Positions 1 through 7,236 of a DNA stretch of 7,236 nt are shown here, one piece after another. This DNA comes from a virus (Duplodnaviria; Heunggongvirae; Uroviricota; Caudoviricetes): the IMG/VR virus record IMGVR_UViG_2706794665_000008; one strand, 5' to 3'. The stretch's first letter is position 1, and every line of letters starts with the position of its first letter. A model generated the notes under the pieces. That model worked only from the letters and a program-made list of their open reading frames with translations. It searched no databases and was not told the DNA's origin. The translations under genes were made by a program, and so were the position numbers.

Positions 1-399
1 GCTCCTTCTGATGCCATTCTATTTCAGGAAGGAGTGTCCGTTAAACTCAGGCTACCTCAGTCTGCTGATTTGAGTCGCTACAGTGGCACGGTGGTTAACC
101 GTCCGACGTTTTTTGCTTTTGCAAAAGGCGCGGGTGTGATGGGGGAAGCGGGACCTGAAGCCATTCTGCCACTGCGTCGCGGTGCTGATGGTAAGCTGGG
201 GGGTGTGGCGGATACTGGTGGTTCAGGCATGGTGATGTTTGCCCCGCAGTACAACATTGAGATCAATAACGATGGCACGAACGGGCAGATAGGTCCGGCT
301 GCCCTGAAGGTGGTTTATGACCTCGGGAAAAAAGCGGCCGCGGACTTTATGCAACAGCAGGCCCGTGATGGTGGCCGGTTAAGTGGAGCATACCGGTAA
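1..399 (+). CDS. H: Tail tape measure protein gpH, C-terminal fragment (5' end lies upstream of the window)
   Basis: Frame 1 is open from base 1 to TAA at 397-399. The translation (...GGSGMVMFAPQYNIEINNDGTNGQIGPAALKVVYDLGKKAAADF...) matches my recollection of the lambda gpH C-terminus. Stop overlaps the next gene's start (TAATG), as in lambda H/M. No search run. Confidence 0.8.
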   Translation, partial: APSDAILFQEGVSVKLRLPQSADLSRYSGTVVNRPTFFAFAKGAGVMGEAGPEAILPLRRGADGKLGGVADTGGSGMVMFAPQYNIEINNDGTNGQIGPAALKVVYDLGKKAAADFMQQQARDGGRLSGAYR

Positions 400-728
400 T
401 GGAGACGTTTCACTGGAAAGTGCGCCCGGATATGAATGTGGTATCAGAGCCGAAAGTGGTGACAGTGAAGCTGGGCGATGGTTATGAACAGCGTCGTGCG
501 GCGGGACTGAATAACCAGTTGTCGACTTACAGCGTGAAGATACGTGTTCGTAAAGGTGAACACCCATTTTTAAAAGCCTTTCTGGAACGGCACGGTGGCG
601 TCCGCGCATTTCAGTGGACGCCACCTTATGACTGGAAGCCGATCAGGGTGGTTTGTCGTAAATGGTCGGCAAGCGTGGGGGCGTTGTGGGTAACCATAAC
701 GGCAGATTTTGAACAGGTCGTGGCATAG
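399..728 (+). CDS. M: Minor tail protein M (tail tip assembly)
   Basis: 109-aa ORF starting METFHWKV... and ending ...FEQVVA. Same length and closely similar sequence to lambda gpM as I recall it. ATG overlaps the H stop (TAATG). Position between H and L fits lambda order. Confidence 0.88.
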   Translation: METFHWKVRPDMNVVSEPKVVTVKLGDGYEQRRAAGLNNQLSTYSVKIRVRKGEHPFLKAFLERHGGVRAFQWTPPYDWKPIRVVCRKWSASVGALWVTITADFEQVVA

Positions 729-737
729 GAGGCTCTG

Positions 738-1436
738 ATGCAGGATATTCCACAGGAAACACATCATGAGACGACACGCCTCACTCAGTCAGCCCAGGTG
801 GTGCTCTGGGAAATCGATCTGACAGAGGTCGGTGGTGAACGTTATTTTTTCTGTAATGAGCAGAACGAAAAAGGTGAGCCGGTTACCTGGCAGGGGCGGC
901 AGTATCAGGCATACCCCATTCAGGGGACGGGATTTGAACTGAACGGCAAGGGCAGTGCTGCCCGTCCGACACTGACGGTTTCTAACCTGCACGGAATGGT
1001 CACCGGGATGGCGGAAGACCTGCAGAGTCTGGTCGGCGGAACGGTGGTCAGGCGTAAGGTTTACGCCCGTTTTCTGGATGCGGTGAACTTCGTCAACGGA
1101 AACAGCGACGCCGATCCGGAACAGGAGGTGATCAGCCGCTGGCGCATCGAGCAGTGCAGCGAACTGAGCGCGGTCAGTGCCTCTTTTGTGCTGGCCACAC
1201 CAACGGAGACGGATGGCGCGGTTTTCCCGGGGCGTATCATGCTGGCGAATACCTGTATGTGGACTTACCGTTCTGATGAGTGTGGTTACACGGGCAGGGC
1301 AGTGGCTGACGAGTTCGACAAACCAACGACGGATATCCGGAAGGACAAATGCAGCAAGTGTATGCGCGGGTGTGAGTTGCGCAACAATACCGGTAATTTC
1401 GGCGGTTTCCTTTCCATCAATAAACTTTCTCAGTAA
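738..1436 (+). CDS. L: Minor tail protein L (tail tip, Fe-S cluster-binding)
   Basis: 232-aa ORF starting MQDIPQET... with an AGGAGG Shine-Dalgarno at 726-731. It contains the conserved WEIDLTEVGGERYFFCNEQNEKGEPVTWQGRQYQ block and a C-terminal Cys cluster (C..C...C..C...C), and ends ...GNFGGFLSINKLSQ, as lambda gpL does. Confidence 0.9.
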   Translation: MQDIPQETHHETTRLTQSAQVVLWEIDLTEVGGERYFFCNEQNEKGEPVTWQGRQYQAYPIQGTGFELNGKGSAARPTLTVSNLHGMVTGMAEDLQSLVGGTVVRRKVYARFLDAVNFVNGNSDADPEQEVISRWRIEQCSELSAVSASFVLATPTETDGAVFPGRIMLANTCMWTYRSDECGYTGRAVADEFDKPTTDIRKDKCSKCMRGCELRNNTGNFGGFLSINKLSQ

Positions 1437-1440
1437 ATCC

Positions 1441-2184
1441 ATGACACAGACAGAATCAGCGATTCTGGCGCACGCCCGGCGATGTGCGCCAGCGGAGTCG
1501 TGTGGCTTCGTGGTAAGAACGCCGGAGGGAGACAGGTATCTTCCCAGCGAGAATATCTCCGGTGAGCCGGAGGAACGGTTCCGGATGGCTCCGGAGGACT
1601 GGCTGCGGGCACAAATGCAGGGTGAGATTGTGGCGCTGGTCCACAGTCATCCCGGTGGTCTGCCCTGGCTGAGTGAGGCTGACCGGCGGCTGCAGGTGCA
1701 GAGTGATTTGCCGTGGTGGCTGGTCTGCCGGGGGGCGATTCACAAGTTCCGCTGTGTGCCGCATCTCACCGGGCGGCGCTTTGAGCACGGGGTGACGGAC
1801 TGTTACACGCTGTTCCGGGATGCTTATCATCTGGCAGGGATTGAGATGCCGGATTTTCATCGCGGGGATGACTGGTGGCGTAACGGTCAGAATCTCTATC
1901 TTGACAATATGGAGGTGACGGGTTTTTACCGTGTCGCACTGACAGAGGCACAGCCGGGCGATGTGCTGCTGTGCTGTTTTGGTTCATCGGTGCCGAATCA
2001 TGCCGCCATTTACTGCGGTGACGGCGGGCTGCTGCACCATATTCCTGAACAACTGAGCAAACGAGAGAGGTACACCGACAAATGGCAGCGACGCACACAC
2101 TCCCTCTGGCGTCACCGGGCATGGCGCGCATCTGCCTTTACGGGGATTTACAACGATTTGGTCGCCGCATCGACCTTCGTGTGA
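1441..2184 (+). CDS. K: Tail tip assembly protein K (JAMM/MPN metalloprotease-like plus NlpC/P60-like domains)
   Basis: Start chosen at ATG 1441 (MTQTESAILAHARRCAPAE...), 4 nt after the L stop, matching the lambda gpK N-terminus. The longer ORF from 1177 lies inside L. A JAMM motif is visible (HSHPGGLPWLSEAD = H-x-H-x7-S-x2-D, about 1642-1683), followed by a conserved Cys (GVTDCYTLF) and downstream His residues typical of NlpC/P60. Confidence 0.85.
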   Translation: MTQTESAILAHARRCAPAESCGFVVRTPEGDRYLPSENISGEPEERFRMAPEDWLRAQMQGEIVALVHSHPGGLPWLSEADRRLQVQSDLPWWLVCRGAIHKFRCVPHLTGRRFEHGVTDCYTLFRDAYHLAGIEMPDFHRGDDWWRNGQNLYLDNMEVTGFYRVALTEAQPGDVLLCCFGSSVPNHAAIYCGDGGLLHHIPEQLSKRERYTDKWQRRTHSLWRHRAWRASAFTGIYNDLVAASTFV

Positions 2185-2714
2185 AAACGGGGGCTGAAGC
2201 CATCCGGGCACTGGCCACACAGCTCCCGGCGTTTCGTCAGAAACTGAGTGACGGCTGGTATCAGGTGCGCATTGCCGGGCGTGATGCAGGTGAAACCGAA
2301 TTGTCTGCCCGTCTTAATGAGCCNNNNNNNNNNNNNNNNNNNNNNNNNNNNNNNNNNNNNNNNNNNNNNNNNNNNNNNNNNNNNNNNNNNNNNNNNNNNN
2401 NNNNNNNNNNNNNNNNNNNNNNNNNNNNNNNNNNNNNNNNNNNNNNNNNNNNNNNNNNNNNNNNNNNNNNNNNNNNNNNNNNNNNNNNNNNNNNNNNNNN
2501 NNNNNNNNNNNNNNNNNNNNNNNNNNNNNNNNNNNNNNNNNNNNNNNNNNNNNNNNNNNNNNNNTATTTCTCGTCACTGGATAACATGGTTGCCCAGGGC
2601 AATGTTCTGCCCGTTCTGTACGGTGAAATGCGCGTGGGGTCACGTGTGGTTTCTCAGGAGATCAGCACGGCAGACGAAGGGGATGGTGGTCAGGTTGTGG
2701 TGATTGGTCGCTGA
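2082..2714 (+). CDS. I: Tail assembly protein I (interrupted by N run 2324-2564)
   Basis: Starts MAATHTLPLASPGMARICLYGDLQRFGRRIDLRVKTGAEAIRALATQLPAFRQKLSDGWYQVRIAGRD..., matching lambda gpI. After the N run the same frame reads ...YFSSLDNMVAQGNVLPVLYGEMRVGSRVVSQEISTADEGDGGQVVVIGR*, the gpI C-terminus. The 5' end overlaps the K 3' end in another frame, as in lambda. Confidence 0.82.
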   Translation: MAATHTLPLASPGMARICLYGDLQRFGRRIDLRVKTGAEAIRALATQLPAFRQKLSDGWYQVRIAGRDAGETELSARLNEXXXXXXXXXXXXXXXXXXXXXXXXXXXXXXXXXXXXXXXXXXXXXXXXXXXXXXXXXXXXXXXXXXXXXXXXXXXXXXXXXYFSSLDNMVAQGNVLPVLYGEMRVGSRVVSQEISTADEGDGGQVVVIGR

Positions 2715-2742
2715 TGCAAAATGTTTTATGTGAAACCGCCTG

Positions 2743-2770
2743 CGGGCGGTTTTGTCGTTTATGGAGCGTG
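2743..2770 (+). promoter_or_regulatory. GC-rich hairpin plus T-tract in the I-J intergenic spacer (terminator-like; possible attenuator or RNA-stability element)
   Basis: aaaccgcc (2743-2750), loop tgcg, ggcggttt (2755-2762), then tttgtcgttt. Seen directly; function is inferred. Confidence 0.3.
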
Positions 2771-2774
2771 AGGA

Positions 2775-5700
2775 ATGGGTAAAGGCAGCAGTAAGGGGCA
2801 TACCCCGCGCGAAGCGAAGGACAACCTGAAATCCACGCAGTTGCTGAGTGTGATTGATGCCATCAGCGAAGGGCCGGTTGACGGTCCGGTGGATGGATTA
2901 AAAAGCGTGCTGCTGAACGGTACGCCGGTCCTGGACAGCGAGGGGAAGACAAACTTTTCCGGTGTTACGGTGGTGTTCCGTGCAGGTGAGCAGGAGCAGA
3001 CACCGCCGGAGGGTTTTGAATCCTCCGGCTCCGAGACGGTGCTGGGTACGGAAGTGAAATATGACACGCCGATCACCCGGACCATCACGTCGGCAAACAT
3101 CGACCGTCTGCGCCTGACCTTCGGTGTGCAGGCACTGGTGGAAACCACCTCAAAGGGTGACCGGAATCCGTCGGAAGTCCGCCTGCTGGTTCAGATACAG
3201 CGTAACGGTGGCTGGGTGACGGAAAAAGACATCACCATTAAGGGCAAAACCACTTCGCAGTATCTGGCCTCGGTGGTGGTGGGTAACCTGCCGCCGCGCC
3301 CGTTTAATATCCGGATGCGCAGGATGACACCGGACAGCACCACAGACCAGCTGCAGAACAAAACGCTCTGGTCGTCGTACACCGAAATCATCGATGTGAA
3401 ACAGTGCTACCCGAACACGGCGCTGGTCGGCGTGCAGGTGGATTCAGAGCAGTTCGGTAACCAGCAGGTGAGTCGCAATTATCATCTTCGCGGGCGCATT
3501 CTGCAGGTGCCGTCGAACTATAACCCGCAGACGCGGCAATACAGCGGTATCTGGGACGGAACGCTTAAGCCAGCATACAGCAACAACATGGCCTGGTGTC
3601 TGTGGGACATGCTCACTCATCCGCGCTACGGCATGGGGAAACGTCTTGGTGCGGCAGATGTGGACAAATGGGCGCTGTATGTCATCGGCCAGTACTGCGA
3701 CCAGTCAGTGACGGACGGATTTGGCGGCACGGAGCCGCGCATCACCTGTAACTCTTACCTGACCACACAGCGTAAGGCGTGGGATGTTCTCAGTGATTTC
3801 TGCTCGGCGATGCGCTGTATGCCGGTATGGAACGGACAGATGCTGACGTTCGTGCAGGACCGACCGTCGGATAAGGTGTGGACCTATAACCGCAGTAATG
3901 TGGTGATGCCGGACGATGGCGCGCCGTTCCGCTACAGCTTCAGCGCCCTGAAGGACCGCCATAATGCCGTTGAGGTGAACTGGATTGACCCAGATAACGG
4001 CTGGGAGACGGCGACAGAGCTTGTGGAGGATACGCAGGCCATTGCCCGTTACGGTCGTAATGTCACGAAGATGGATGCCTTTGGCTGTACCAGCCGGGGG
4101 CAGGCACACCGAGCCGGGCTGTGGCTGATTAAAACGGAACTGCTGGAAACGCAGACCGTGGACTTCAGCGTGGGCGCAGAAGGGCTTCGCCATGTACCGG
4201 GTGATGTCATTGAAATCTGCGATGATGATTATGCCGGTATCAGCACCGGTGGTCGCGTACTGGCGGTGAACAGCCAGACCCGGACGCTGACGCTCGACCG
4301 TGAAATCACGCTGCCGTCCTCCGGTACCACGCTGATAAGCCTGGTTGACGGAAGTGGCAATCCGGTCAGCGTGGAGGTCCAGTCCGTCACCGACGGCGTG
4401 AAGGTGAAAGTGAGCCGGGTTCCTGACGGCGTTGCAGAATACAGCGTGTGGGGGCTGAAGCTGCCGACGCTGCGCCAGCGTCTGTTCCGCTGCGTGAGTA
4501 TCCGTGAGAACGACGACGGCACGTATGCCATCACCGCCGTGCAGCATGTGCCGGAAAAAGAGGCCATCGTGGATAACGGGGCACACTTTGACGGTGACCG
4601 GCGCGGCACGGTGAATGGTGTCACGCCGCCAGCGGTGCAGCATCTGACCGCCGAAGTCACCGCAGACAGCGGGGAATATCAGGTGCTGGCGCGATGGGAC
4701 ACGCCGAAGGTGGTGAAGGGTGTGAGCTTCCTGCTTCGCCTGACCGTGGCAGCGGACGACGGCAGTGAGCGGCTGGTCAGCACAGCCAGGACGACGGAAA
4801 CCACATACCGCTTCAGGCAGCTGGCGCTGGGGAATTACAGTCTGACAGTCCGGGCGGTAAATGCCCGGGGGCAGCAGGGCGATCAGATATTCATGAACGA
4901 CGTGTTCCTGAAATGCCTGACGGCTCCGACCATTACCAGCGGCGGTAATCCNNNNNNNNNNNNNNNNNNNNNNNNNNNNNNNNNNNNNNNNNNNNNNNNN
5001 NNNNNNNNNNNNNNNNNNNNNNNNNNNNNNNNNNNNNNNNNNNNNNNNNNNNNNNNNNNNNNNNNNNNNNNNNNNNNNNNNNNNNNNNNNNNNNNNNNNN
5101 NNNNNNNNNNNNNNNNNNNNNNNNNNNNNNNNNNNNNNNNNNNNNNNNNNNNNNNNNNNNNNNNNNNNNNNNNNNNNNNNNNNNNNNNNNNNNNNNNNNN
5201 NNNNNNNNNNNNNNNNNNNNNNNGATTATTATTTTTACGTTCGCAGTGTGAACACCGTTGGCAAATCGGCATTTGTGGAGGCCATCGGTCGGGCGAGCGA
5301 TGATGCAGAAGGTTATCTGAATTTTTATAAAGGGTTGATCAATAAAACGCATCTCGGCAAGGAGTTGTGGACGCAGATTGATAACGGTCAGCTTGCGCCG
5401 GACCTGACTGAAATCAGGACGTCCATTACGAATGTCAGCAATGAAATCACGCAAACCGTCAATAAAAAACTGGAAAATCAGAGTGCTGCAATCCAGCAGA
5501 TACAGAAAGTTCAGGTTGATACAAATAATAACCTGAACAGCATGTGGGCTGTGAAGCTGCAACAGATGAAGGACGGACGCCTTTATATTGCGGGTATCGG
5601 TGCCGGTATTGAGAATACGCCAGCAGGAATGCAGAGTCAGGTGCTGCTGGCGGCAGACAGGATTGCGATGATTAATCCTGCGAATGGCAACACAAAGCCG

Positions 5701-6354
5701 ATGTTTGTTGGTCAGGGCGATCAGATATTCATGAACGACGTGTTCCTGAAATGCCTGACGGCTCCGACCATTACCAGCGGCGGTAATCCTCCGGCATTTT
5801 CCCTGACACCTGGCGGACGGCTGACGGCGAAAAATGCCGATATCAGCGGTAACGTGAACGCGAACTCCGGGACGCTCAACAACGTCACGATTAATAAGAA
5901 CTGTCGGGTTCTGGGAAAATTGTCCGCGAACCAGATTGAAGGCGATCTCGTTAAAACAGTGGGCAAACCTTTCCCACGGGACTCCCGGGCACCGGAGAGG
6001 TGGCCATCAGGGACCATTACCGTCAGGGTTTATGACGATCAGCCGTTTGATCGGCAAATTGTTATTCCCGCGGTGGCGTTTCGCGGTGCTAAACATGAGC
6101 GGAAGAATAACAATATTTATTCGTCATGCCGCCTGATAGTGAAGAAAAACGGTGCTGAAATTTATAACCGAACGACCCTGGATAATACGCTGATATATAC
6201 GGGTGTTATTGATATGCCTGCCGGTCACGGTCACATGACGCTGGAGTTTTCTGTATCGGCATGGCTGGTAAATGGCTGGTATCCCACAGCAAGTATCAGC
6301 GATTTGCTGGTTGTGGTGATGAAGAAAGCCACTGCAGGCATCACGATTAGCTGA
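2775..6354 (+). CDS. J: Host specificity / central tail fibre protein J (interrupted by N run 4952-5223; N- and C-terminal parts are in different frames)
   Basis: N-terminal part (2775-4951, frame 3) starts [54 protein letters not shown]..., matching lambda gpJ. C-terminal part (5224-6354, frame 1) starts [32 protein letters not shown]... and contains the conserved [29 protein letters not shown] block before the TGA at 6352-6354. The span is 3580 nt, not a multiple of 3. Confidence 0.85.
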
Positions 6355-6373
6355 ATTTTATAACCCAGATACG

Positions 6374-6400
6374 GGCACCAGAAATGGTGCCTTTTTTATT
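6374..6400 (+). terminator. Rho-independent terminator downstream of J
   Basis: Perfect 6-bp stem ggcacc (6374-6379) / ggtgcc (6386-6391) with a 6-nt loop, followed by TTTTTTATT (6392-6400), 20 nt after the J stop. Confidence 0.55.
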
Positions 6401-6421
6401 GCAGAAAAGCGAGAGGTAATT

Positions 6422-6760
6422 ATGCGTAAAGTTTGTGCAGCCATTTTGTCCGCAGCCATCTGTCTGGCCGTATCCGGTGCGCCTGCATGGGCGTCTGAAC
6501 ATCAGTCCACGCTGAGCGCCGGGTATCTTCAGACCCATACTGATATGCCAGGCAGCGATGACCTGAAGGGCATTAACGTGAAATACCGTTATGAGTTTAC
6601 GGACACGCTGGGGCTGATTACGTCATTCAGTTNGGCGTGGGGGGCTGGCGTGCAGTTTAACCCGACCGAATCCGTGGCCATTGACCTTGCTTATGAAGGT
6701 TCCGGCAGTGGTGACTGGCGCACTGACGGTTTCATCGTGGGTGTCGGTTATAAGTTCTGA
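6422..6760 (+). CDS. lom: Lom-like outer-membrane protein (Ail/Lom/PagC family), internally deleted; likely non-functional
   Basis: 112-aa ORF with a signal peptide (MRKVCAAILSAAICLAVSGAPAWA|SE), a Lom-like N-terminal block (LKGINVKYRYEFTD) and the Lom C-terminus (AIDLAYEGSGSGDWRTDGFIVGVGYKF, terminal Phe). Lambda Lom is roughly 200 aa as I recall, so the central part is missing. A single 'n' at 6633 sits at the junction. Confidence 0.7.
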   Translation: MRKVCAAILSAAICLAVSGAPAWASEHQSTLSAGYLQTHTDMPGSDDLKGINVKYRYEFTDTLGLITSFSXAWGAGVQFNPTESVAIDLAYEGSGSGDWRTDGFIVGVGYKF

Positions 6761-6787
6761 TTAGCCAGGTAACACAGTGTTATGACT

Positions 6788-6812
6788 GCCCGCTGGTTCA
6801 GGCGGGCTTTTT
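6788..6812 (+). terminator. Rho-independent terminator downstream of lom
   Basis: Stem gcccgc (6788-6793) / gcgggc (6802-6807) with an 8-nt loop, followed by TTTTT (6808-6812). Confidence 0.55.
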
Positions 6813-6823
6813 GTGGGGTGAAT

Positions 6824-7150
6824 ATGGCAGTAAAGATTTCAGGTGTACTGAAAGATGGGGCGGGTAAACCTGTCGTAAATTGTGCGATTGAACTGCGGGC
6901 CAGAAGAACCAGTCCGACCGTTGTGGCACACGTTGTTGCCACTTGCGTGACGGACAATAACGGTGCTTATGTGATTGAGGCTGAGCCGGGGTATTACGAG
7001 GTTGCGCTTCACTGTAACGGCTGGCAGCCAACCCGTGTCGGGGATATTGATGTGGCACCGACTGATGCACCGGGGACACTGAACGCGTTTCTGAATGCAC
7101 CAAAGGATGGTGATTTACGTCCGGAGGTGATGAAGTGTCAGCGCCAGTGA
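6824..7150 (+). CDS. stf: Side tail fibre protein Stf, N-terminal fragment (108 codons, then stop)
   Basis: From ATG 6824 the translation MAVKISGVLKDGAGKPVVNCAIELRARR... matches the N-terminus of lambda Stf (MAVKISGVLKDGTGKPV.NC...) as I recall it. The ORF-track start at 6782 would include the lom terminator hairpin, so I reject it. TGA at 7148-7150, and the other two forward frames also hit stops within about 10 codons. Confidence 0.6.
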   Translation: MAVKISGVLKDGAGKPVVNCAIELRARRTSPTVVAHVVATCVTDNNGAYVIEAEPGYYEVALHCNGWQPTRVGDIDVAPTDAPGTLNAFLNAPKDGDLRPEVMKCQRQ

Positions 7151-7236
7151 TATAAGACGGTAATTCGCCATTTGGATTGTCCGCTCCACCCAACATGTTG
7201 TTTCCTTAAGGTTCTCACACCAGAAAGGACATCAAC

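Follow-up and report, generated by a model that had tools for sequence, protein, structure and literature searches.

The locus analysed here is best read against the J gene of phage lambda, the natural deletions of J in Escherichia coli genomes, and gap-filled short-read drafts. In lambda, J lies in the canonical gene order M-L-K-I-J-lom-stf, and the window (the whole stretch of 7,236 nt that was analysed) keeps this order around its own J gene. The J protein of the window, completed from a reference, matches six gpJ-specific Pfam families (FNIII-A_GpJ, Phage-tail_3, Ig_J, Ig_J_second, Phage_Tail_Tip, and Ig_GpJ_C) with E-values of 1e-30 to 1e-43, all above the Pfam thresholds. It differs from lambda in that J sits in a defective module, with IS elements cutting short the tape-measure and tail-fibre genes, and from the gpJ family in that the Shigella sonnei lineage has Cys for the usual Arg in the conserved (R)L block.

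In decaying E. coli prophages, natural in-frame deletions of J take out the second Ig domain together with the stalk segment next to it, between the first Ig and the tail-tip fibre domains, and occur at short direct repeats. In PE164 (NZ_CP114128.1) and E105 (NZ_CP071375.1) the protein reads FRIA|MINP across a deletion at the 8-nt repeat GGATTGCG, whose breakpoints lie 26 and 51 nt from those in the window, and protein P0002 carries the in-frame J deletion YFQIT|ESHLGK. Closed genomes show these deletions as uninterrupted sequence, and independent records repeat them, whereas the junction in the window was found in no other record and is followed by a gap.

The CX.. WGS series comprises the S. 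sonnei assemblies of Holt et al. 2012. The Sanger pipeline uses Velvet first, SSPACE next, and GapFiller for 120 rounds after that, and drops contigs below 300-500 nt (PMC5320598). SSPACE and GapFiller are greedy and, according to the authors of the pipeline, capable of false joins (PMC5320598). GapFiller trims 10 nt off the gap edges, extends with 30-mers, and by default closes a gap once two extensions overlap by at least 10 nt (PMC3446322). The window resembles gap-filled drafts in its variable N runs, a single-N gap, wrong gap sizes, and a duplicate beside Ns; it differs in that the duplicate lies 489 nt inside the next contig, not at the facing edge.

Layout of the scaffold and its closed counterparts

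Megablast against complete E. coli genomes identified the window as a lambdoid tail module (end of the tape-measure gene, M, L, K, I, J, lom, and an N-terminal tail-fibre fragment), with the gene order taken from annotated E. coli loci and Pfam tags. Closed, IS-rich chromosomes of 4.8-4.9 Mb were reached by exact match to the K protein of the window, and one of their loci, L005 (CP023645.1, 1953172-1960577), served as the main reference; another of the chromosomes, CP019689, belongs to S. sonnei 75/02 (PMC5447701). All 6,655 of the 6,655 non-N bases outside a misplaced tail described below were identical to L005, as well as to L006, L007, L009-L011, and L013. The four contigs measure 2323, 2320, 1409, and 603 nt, each 100% identical to the closed chromosomes. 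They correspond to L005 6561-8883 (window 1-2323), 9134-11453 (2565-4884), 11693-13101 (5224-6632), and 13364-13966 (6634-7236).

The scaffold begins with the terminal 59 nt (1-59, minus strand) of an IS3-family, IS600-like element. At least three other IS ends in L005 carry exactly this stretch and diverge past ...CTACCTCA; the ATG of the IS3-family transposase lies 5 nt beyond the start of the window, and homology to E. coli prophages begins at 57-58. All genes that follow are on the plus strand. Contig 1 (60-2323, 100% identical to L005) begins with what is left of the tape-measure gene at its 3' side (to 399), followed by M (399-728), L (738-1436), K (1441-2184), and the first part of I. 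Within the tail-assembly gene I, gap 1 (2324-2564) shows 241 N and hides 250 bases (L005 8884-9133). The correct part of contig 2 includes J codons 1-703 (2775-4884). Gap 2 (4952-5223) shows 272 N and hides 239 bases of J in the second Ig domain (L005 11454-11692), and contig 3 resumes with J codons 784-1159 and the stop codon (5224-6354), identical to L005 from 11693 onward. The lom gene (6422-6760) is broken by a single N at 6633, which stands for 262 bases (L005 13102-13363). Next in the list of open reading frames comes an N-terminal fragment of the side tail-fibre gene (6782-7135), cut off by an IS21-family insertion; PF08400 (phage_tail_N) was found on the identical product in a sibling draft, L014. 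The first 101 nt of the IS21-family element (7136-7236, plus strand) form the 3' end of the scaffold, just short of the istA ATG, with the onset of homology at L005 13865/13866 (window 7135/7136). The window looks like an entire scaffold from a short-read assembly, covering a defective lambdoid tail module of S. sonnei with an IS element on either side.

Comparison with the closed chromosomes further revealed that the N runs do not measure what they hide: 241 N against 250 bases, 272 N (plus 67 misplaced bases) against 239, and 1 N against 262. The lengths of N runs in this scaffold are untrustworthy, and the possibility that they are length-preserving masks is ruled out by these figures (241 vs 250, 339 vs 239, 1 vs 262). 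The preliminary description spoke of one N run, next to the first repeat copy, and left two others, at 2324-2564 and 6633, unmentioned.

The junction in J and the reading frame

The one long repeat within the window is a 77-nt exact direct repeat, in which 4875-4951 is 100% identical to 5713-5789. The first copy abuts an N run, as had been described, and reading the sequence directly bore this out: it ends at 4951 and the run of 272 N begins at 4952. A chance origin of a 77-nt exact match in 7 kb is impossible. Again as first proposed, the two contexts of the 77-mer overlap in the 10-mer CAGGGCGATC and in nothing else; homology reaches 0 nt leftward and 10 nt in all rightward. The left copy of CAGGGCGATC occupies 4875-4884 and encodes J residues Q701, G702, and D703. 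In L005 the 10-mer starts at 11444 and at 12182, and the junction keeps one copy. The 67 nt that follow (4885-4951, plus strand) are a copy of J nucleotides 2849-2915 (window 5723-5789; L005 12192-12258), and the 10-nt repeat is where they join contig 2. The length of 77 is without biological meaning, since the junction sets the left edge of the repeat and the stop of the contig sets its right edge.

Across the junction the window reads GGGGCAGCAGGGCGATC | AGATATTCATG, whereas the intact path reads GGGCGATC | CGGCGTCGG and GTTGGT | CAGGGCGATCAG. The protein reading is GQQGD|QIFMNDV. The anatomy given in the preliminary description therefore stands: the sequence jumps from ...GQQGD to a conserved block of 10 residues at a 10-nt microhomology, and the skipped sequence resumes past the Ns. 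Its estimate of a skip of about 840 bp fits the window coordinates (838 bp); in real J genes the distance is 738 bp, or 246 codons in frame.

In the closed chromosomes the order is ...11453, 239 nt, 11693... in L005 numbering. After L005 11453 every closed genome continues with CCGGCGTCGG..., while the window continues with AGATATTC.... The 77-mer occurs there once per J copy; in the window the copy at 5713-5789 in contig 3 is the genuine one. A 50-mer spanning the junction had 0 occurrences across 13 reference loci. J in the closed chromosomes is a single intact gene of 1159 codons.

The preliminary description had also placed the two halves of J in different frames. This is true of the file, where (5224-2775) mod 3 = 1, but only because the number of Ns is arbitrary: with 67 misplaced bases and 272 N, the file has 339 positions for 239 real bases, and the excess of 100 produces the apparent frame shift. 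When the 67 misplaced bases are dropped and the 239 hidden bases restored, J is in frame; J codon 784 begins at 5224, and translation is open from there to the stop at 6352-6354. The suggestion that a rearrangement had made J a pseudogene found no support, since the frame mismatch is artefactual and the junction, even if real, would be an in-frame deletion. Such a junction would excise 738 nt (246 codons, J residues 704-949) and give a product of 913 aa, with predicted loss of the end of Ig_J, the whole of Ig_J_second, and ~78 residues at the start of the Phage_Tail_Tip domain.

Origin of the junction

The first 77-mer is most probably a misassembled contig end that is absent from the genome as a feature; we put the probability of this reading at about 80%. 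The anomaly stands at a contig end beside Ns and conflicts with finished genomes that are otherwise identical base for base, and further scaffolding faults are present, in the gap sizes of the window and in the gap edges of the sibling draft L014 (CXDH01000136.1), which belongs to the Sanger CX.. series of S. sonnei. A scaffolding artefact was among the explanations offered at the outset, and it is backed by the intact J in 100% identical closed genomes, the missized N runs, and the similar error in L014.

The X-containing open reading frame of 842 aa had no match on record, and the scaffold itself turned up in none of the collections searched. L014, reached through the 368-aa C-terminal open reading frame of the window, breaks J at L005 11599-11685, within the segment hidden in gap 2 of the window. 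In that draft, 87-nt contig ends are duplicated across 68 N, with a patch of paralog-type bases in the right end; elsewhere a perfect 47-nt inverted duplicate flanks a single N, and contig ends have 47-48 nt in common with their neighbours. Because of these duplicated and paralog-contaminated gap edges, bases beside Ns in such S. sonnei drafts are demonstrably unreliable. L014 nevertheless provides almost all of the gap-2 sequence, which continues normally as ...GQQGDPASVSF.

According to the misassembly reading, 67 nt from 738 bp downstream in J would have been appended to contig 2 through the chance 10-nt repeat CAGGGCGATC, in a step of assembly, scaffolding, or gap filling. Contig 2 would then halt before a gap that was left unfilled and whose length is arbitrary (272 N in place of 239 bases). 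By analogy with the sibling draft L014, the window may have passed through the Sanger pipeline, and we favour as the route a greedy gap-filling or scaffolding misjoin of the Velvet, SSPACE, and GapFiller type, because the 10-nt microhomology equals the default minimum overlap of GapFiller, the length at which chance overlaps are commonest, and J contains 22 such pairs. The number of direct 10-mer pairs in codon-shuffled J was 11.9 +/- 3.8, and the pair at the junction is ordinary for J. A chimeric read built into the contig end would have produced the same picture. No convincing stepwise path, by GapFiller or through a de Bruijn graph, to exactly 67 extra bases plus an open gap could be constructed, and the route is therefore hypothetical.

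The contig breaks themselves may come from exact stretches, tens to ~150 nt long, that are common to J or lom and to paralogous prophage remnants in the same genome. Paralogous J-lom remnants of the lineage are present in L014 and in L017/L018; L015 and L016, considered as a further source, proved to belong to an unrelated, frameshift-rich E. coli assembly. The paralogs and the main J have exact runs in common of 43 nt across the left breakpoint and 54 nt across the right, and runs of 40-49 nt lie in or beside gap 2. Exact runs of 151, 51, and 70 nt span nearly the whole of gap 3, where the segment hidden at 6633 is nearly identical to lom of a paralogous prophage, and contig 3 stops 61 nt into the 151-nt run. 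Exact repeats with the known paralogs explain only part of the breakpoints (gap 3, the point where contig 3 ends, and the two arms of the junction).

An unlikely alternative, though the strongest of the others, is that the junction records a slippage-type microhomology deletion of J codons 704-949, carried by a second, recently duplicated copy of the tail module or by part of the sequenced culture, and that the assembler merged the deleted and the intact paths. The junction does have the classic form, with short direct repeats at both ends, one 10-nt copy kept, and 738 nt (246 codons) gone in frame, and natural in-frame deletions of nearly the same segment of J occur in complete genomes. Both arms are 100% main J, as expected of a deletion within J or within an exact duplicate. 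A deletion-bearing second copy is conceivable, as the tail module is in tandem duplicate in at least one S. sonnei strain, 75/02 (L009/L010; CP019689, PMC5447701).

The junction was, however, missing from all other sequences searched, which included thousands of S. sonnei-derived proteins. Megablast with a 120-nt probe found no contiguous junction in 5,426 complete E. coli genomes, only split matches and the two genomes with the other deletion; in every complete genome the junction arms lay 654-738 bp apart and were never adjacent. A 35-nt amino-acid-degenerate pattern of the junction had no match in 185,579 species-representative genomes, IMG/VR, and JGI metagenome contigs. When a 300-aa synthetic junction protein was compared with 5.8 billion clusters, the junction was not seen among the best of 2,379 J homologues, and the contiguous matches carried only other deletions, namely FRIA|MINP (PE164-type remnants) and YFQIT|ESHLGK (P0002). 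The exact 913-aa deletion product was absent among ~15 billion proteins. By comparison, at least 999 contigs named Shigella or S. sonnei carry the exact intact J of 1159 aa, and the truncated members of its cluster all run through GQQGDPASVSF. The genome, contig, and protein collections searched thus yielded no independent record of the junction.

Nor does the window itself continue from the junction into unique DNA: the sequence stops after 67 nt, Ns follow, and the skipped segment returns. A graph with two paths would leave the loss of 239 nt from the intact path unexplained, and it must be set beside two further gaps in the scaffold that have no junction and beside purely artefactual duplications at the same spot in L014. 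In RecA-independent deletion, a 10-nt repeat 738 nt apart makes a poor slippage substrate, and no selection for the loss is evident, the prophage being defective.

Less probable still is a reading in which the 77-mer would be the last k-mer vertex of a de Bruijn contig (for example SPAdes with k = 77): a junction edge backed by chimeric library reads would run to the vertex at which it meets the intact path again, be output in full, and then be scaffolded across a gap. Edges are (k+1)-mers, so at k = 77 the junction edge would end exactly 77 nt past the first base of the microhomology, as seen, and with 150-nt reads the largest k is often 77. The 47-48 nt that L014 contig ends have in common with their neighbours indicate that drafts of this kind do contain k-length overlaps next to Ns. 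The other evaluable contig ends of the window reach different depths into repeats, however, at 59-61 nt (the 5' end, and the start and end of contig 3) and 101 nt (the 3' end). Taken together the extensions are 59-61, 60-61, 61, 77, and 101 nt. The 59-61 and 61-nt ends suggest graph contigs with k near 61, but the 77-nt tail and the 101-nt 3' end fit no one k, and SPAdes with k = 77 was dropped as a firm conclusion. A pipeline of the Velvet, SSPACE, and GapFiller type is indicated instead by the gaps of a single N and by the link to the Sanger drafts of S. sonnei. The k = 77 reading is itself an artefact reading, which departs from the misassembled contig end in route alone.

A collapse of two J alleles, taken as diverged paralogs, is unsupported, and a diverged paralog as the source of the first 77-mer is excluded, as 4-7 positions of the 77-mer are different in the paralogs, while the two junction arms are 100% main J.

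Meaning for J and for draft prophage records

If the deletion were true, it would be a third independent in-frame loss of the same J segment, hinting at a deletion-prone or dispensable region of gpJ. A real junction would otherwise be a minor case of decay in a prophage whose tail module IS insertions had already disabled. In all likelihood, the feature is a commonplace artefact of draft assembly in a prophage region rich in paralogs, and its value is in quality control only. An annotator working from this record would take J for a pseudogene with a frameshift or for a rearranged allele, and lom and I for disrupted genes. In scaffolded short-read drafts, bases adjacent to Ns and the lengths of N runs are no basis for frameshifts, duplications, or deletions, and the caution applies above all to prophage genes with paralogs elsewhere in the genome. 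In the S. sonnei clone all three genes, J, I, and lom, are intact.

IS-bounded remnant and its tandem duplication

What survives of the tail module is defective and is bounded by insertion sequences. On one side, an IS3-family (IS600-like) element (window 1-59; 6082-6619 in L005, the reference locus from a closed S. sonnei chromosome) truncates the tape-measure gene. On the other side, an IS21-family element (window 7136-7236; L005 13865 onward) truncates the side tail-fibre gene, and is itself broken by another IS in several strains. In the closed genome of S. sonnei 75/02 (CP019689.1; loci L009 and L010), the entire IS-flanked M-L-K-I-J-lom module was found as a tandem duplicate, with the two copies about 9.4 kb apart and J intact in both.

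Scaffold gaps and signs of faulty assembly

Two further gaps interrupt genes of the window. The run of 241 N at 2324-2564 lies within the tail-assembly gene I and hides 250 nt, and one N at 6633 lies within lom. Because this single N conceals 262 nt, lom, whose true length is 199 codons, reads as a gene of only 112 codons that contains one ambiguous base.

Other records also show signs of such faults. The scaffold of L014, a sibling S. sonnei draft from Sanger (CXDH01000136.1), joins two distinct J-lom paralogs head to tail. It carries an 87-nt duplicate on both sides of a 68-N run (1242-1483), with a paralog-type patch in which CACAGCA replaces CAGCGCC, and a single N flanked by a perfect 47-nt inverted duplicate (3861-3955). 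In a 4.87-Mb E. coli assembly (JBIGPK010000001.1; loci L015 and L016), the L, K, I and J genes of two lambdoid prophages are broken up into many short ORFs. Indel errors left uncorrected in long reads typically give this pattern, and real pseudogenes do not.

Substitution and internal deletion in J

Within a highly conserved block of J, the lineage of the window carries TGC (Cys), at window 5751 (L005 12221) and again at 4913 in the misplaced copy of the 77-mer. Every closed S. sonnei locus examined shares this codon. Other J genes have CGC (Arg) at this codon, and the homologue P0037 has Tyr.

Decaying prophages contain genuine in-frame internal deletions of almost the same J segment as that affected by the window junction. 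In E. coli PE164 (NZ_CP114128.1; L003 4068-4094) and E105 (NZ_CP071375.1), ...SFRIA is joined to MINPANG... at the 8-nt repeat GGATTGCG, and a second deletion type, in protein P0002, joins ...GYFQIT to ESHLGKE.... Records with internal J deletions also include the proteins P0001 and P0012. The region of J from the first Ig domain to the tail-tip fibre domain seems to have been lost repeatedly.
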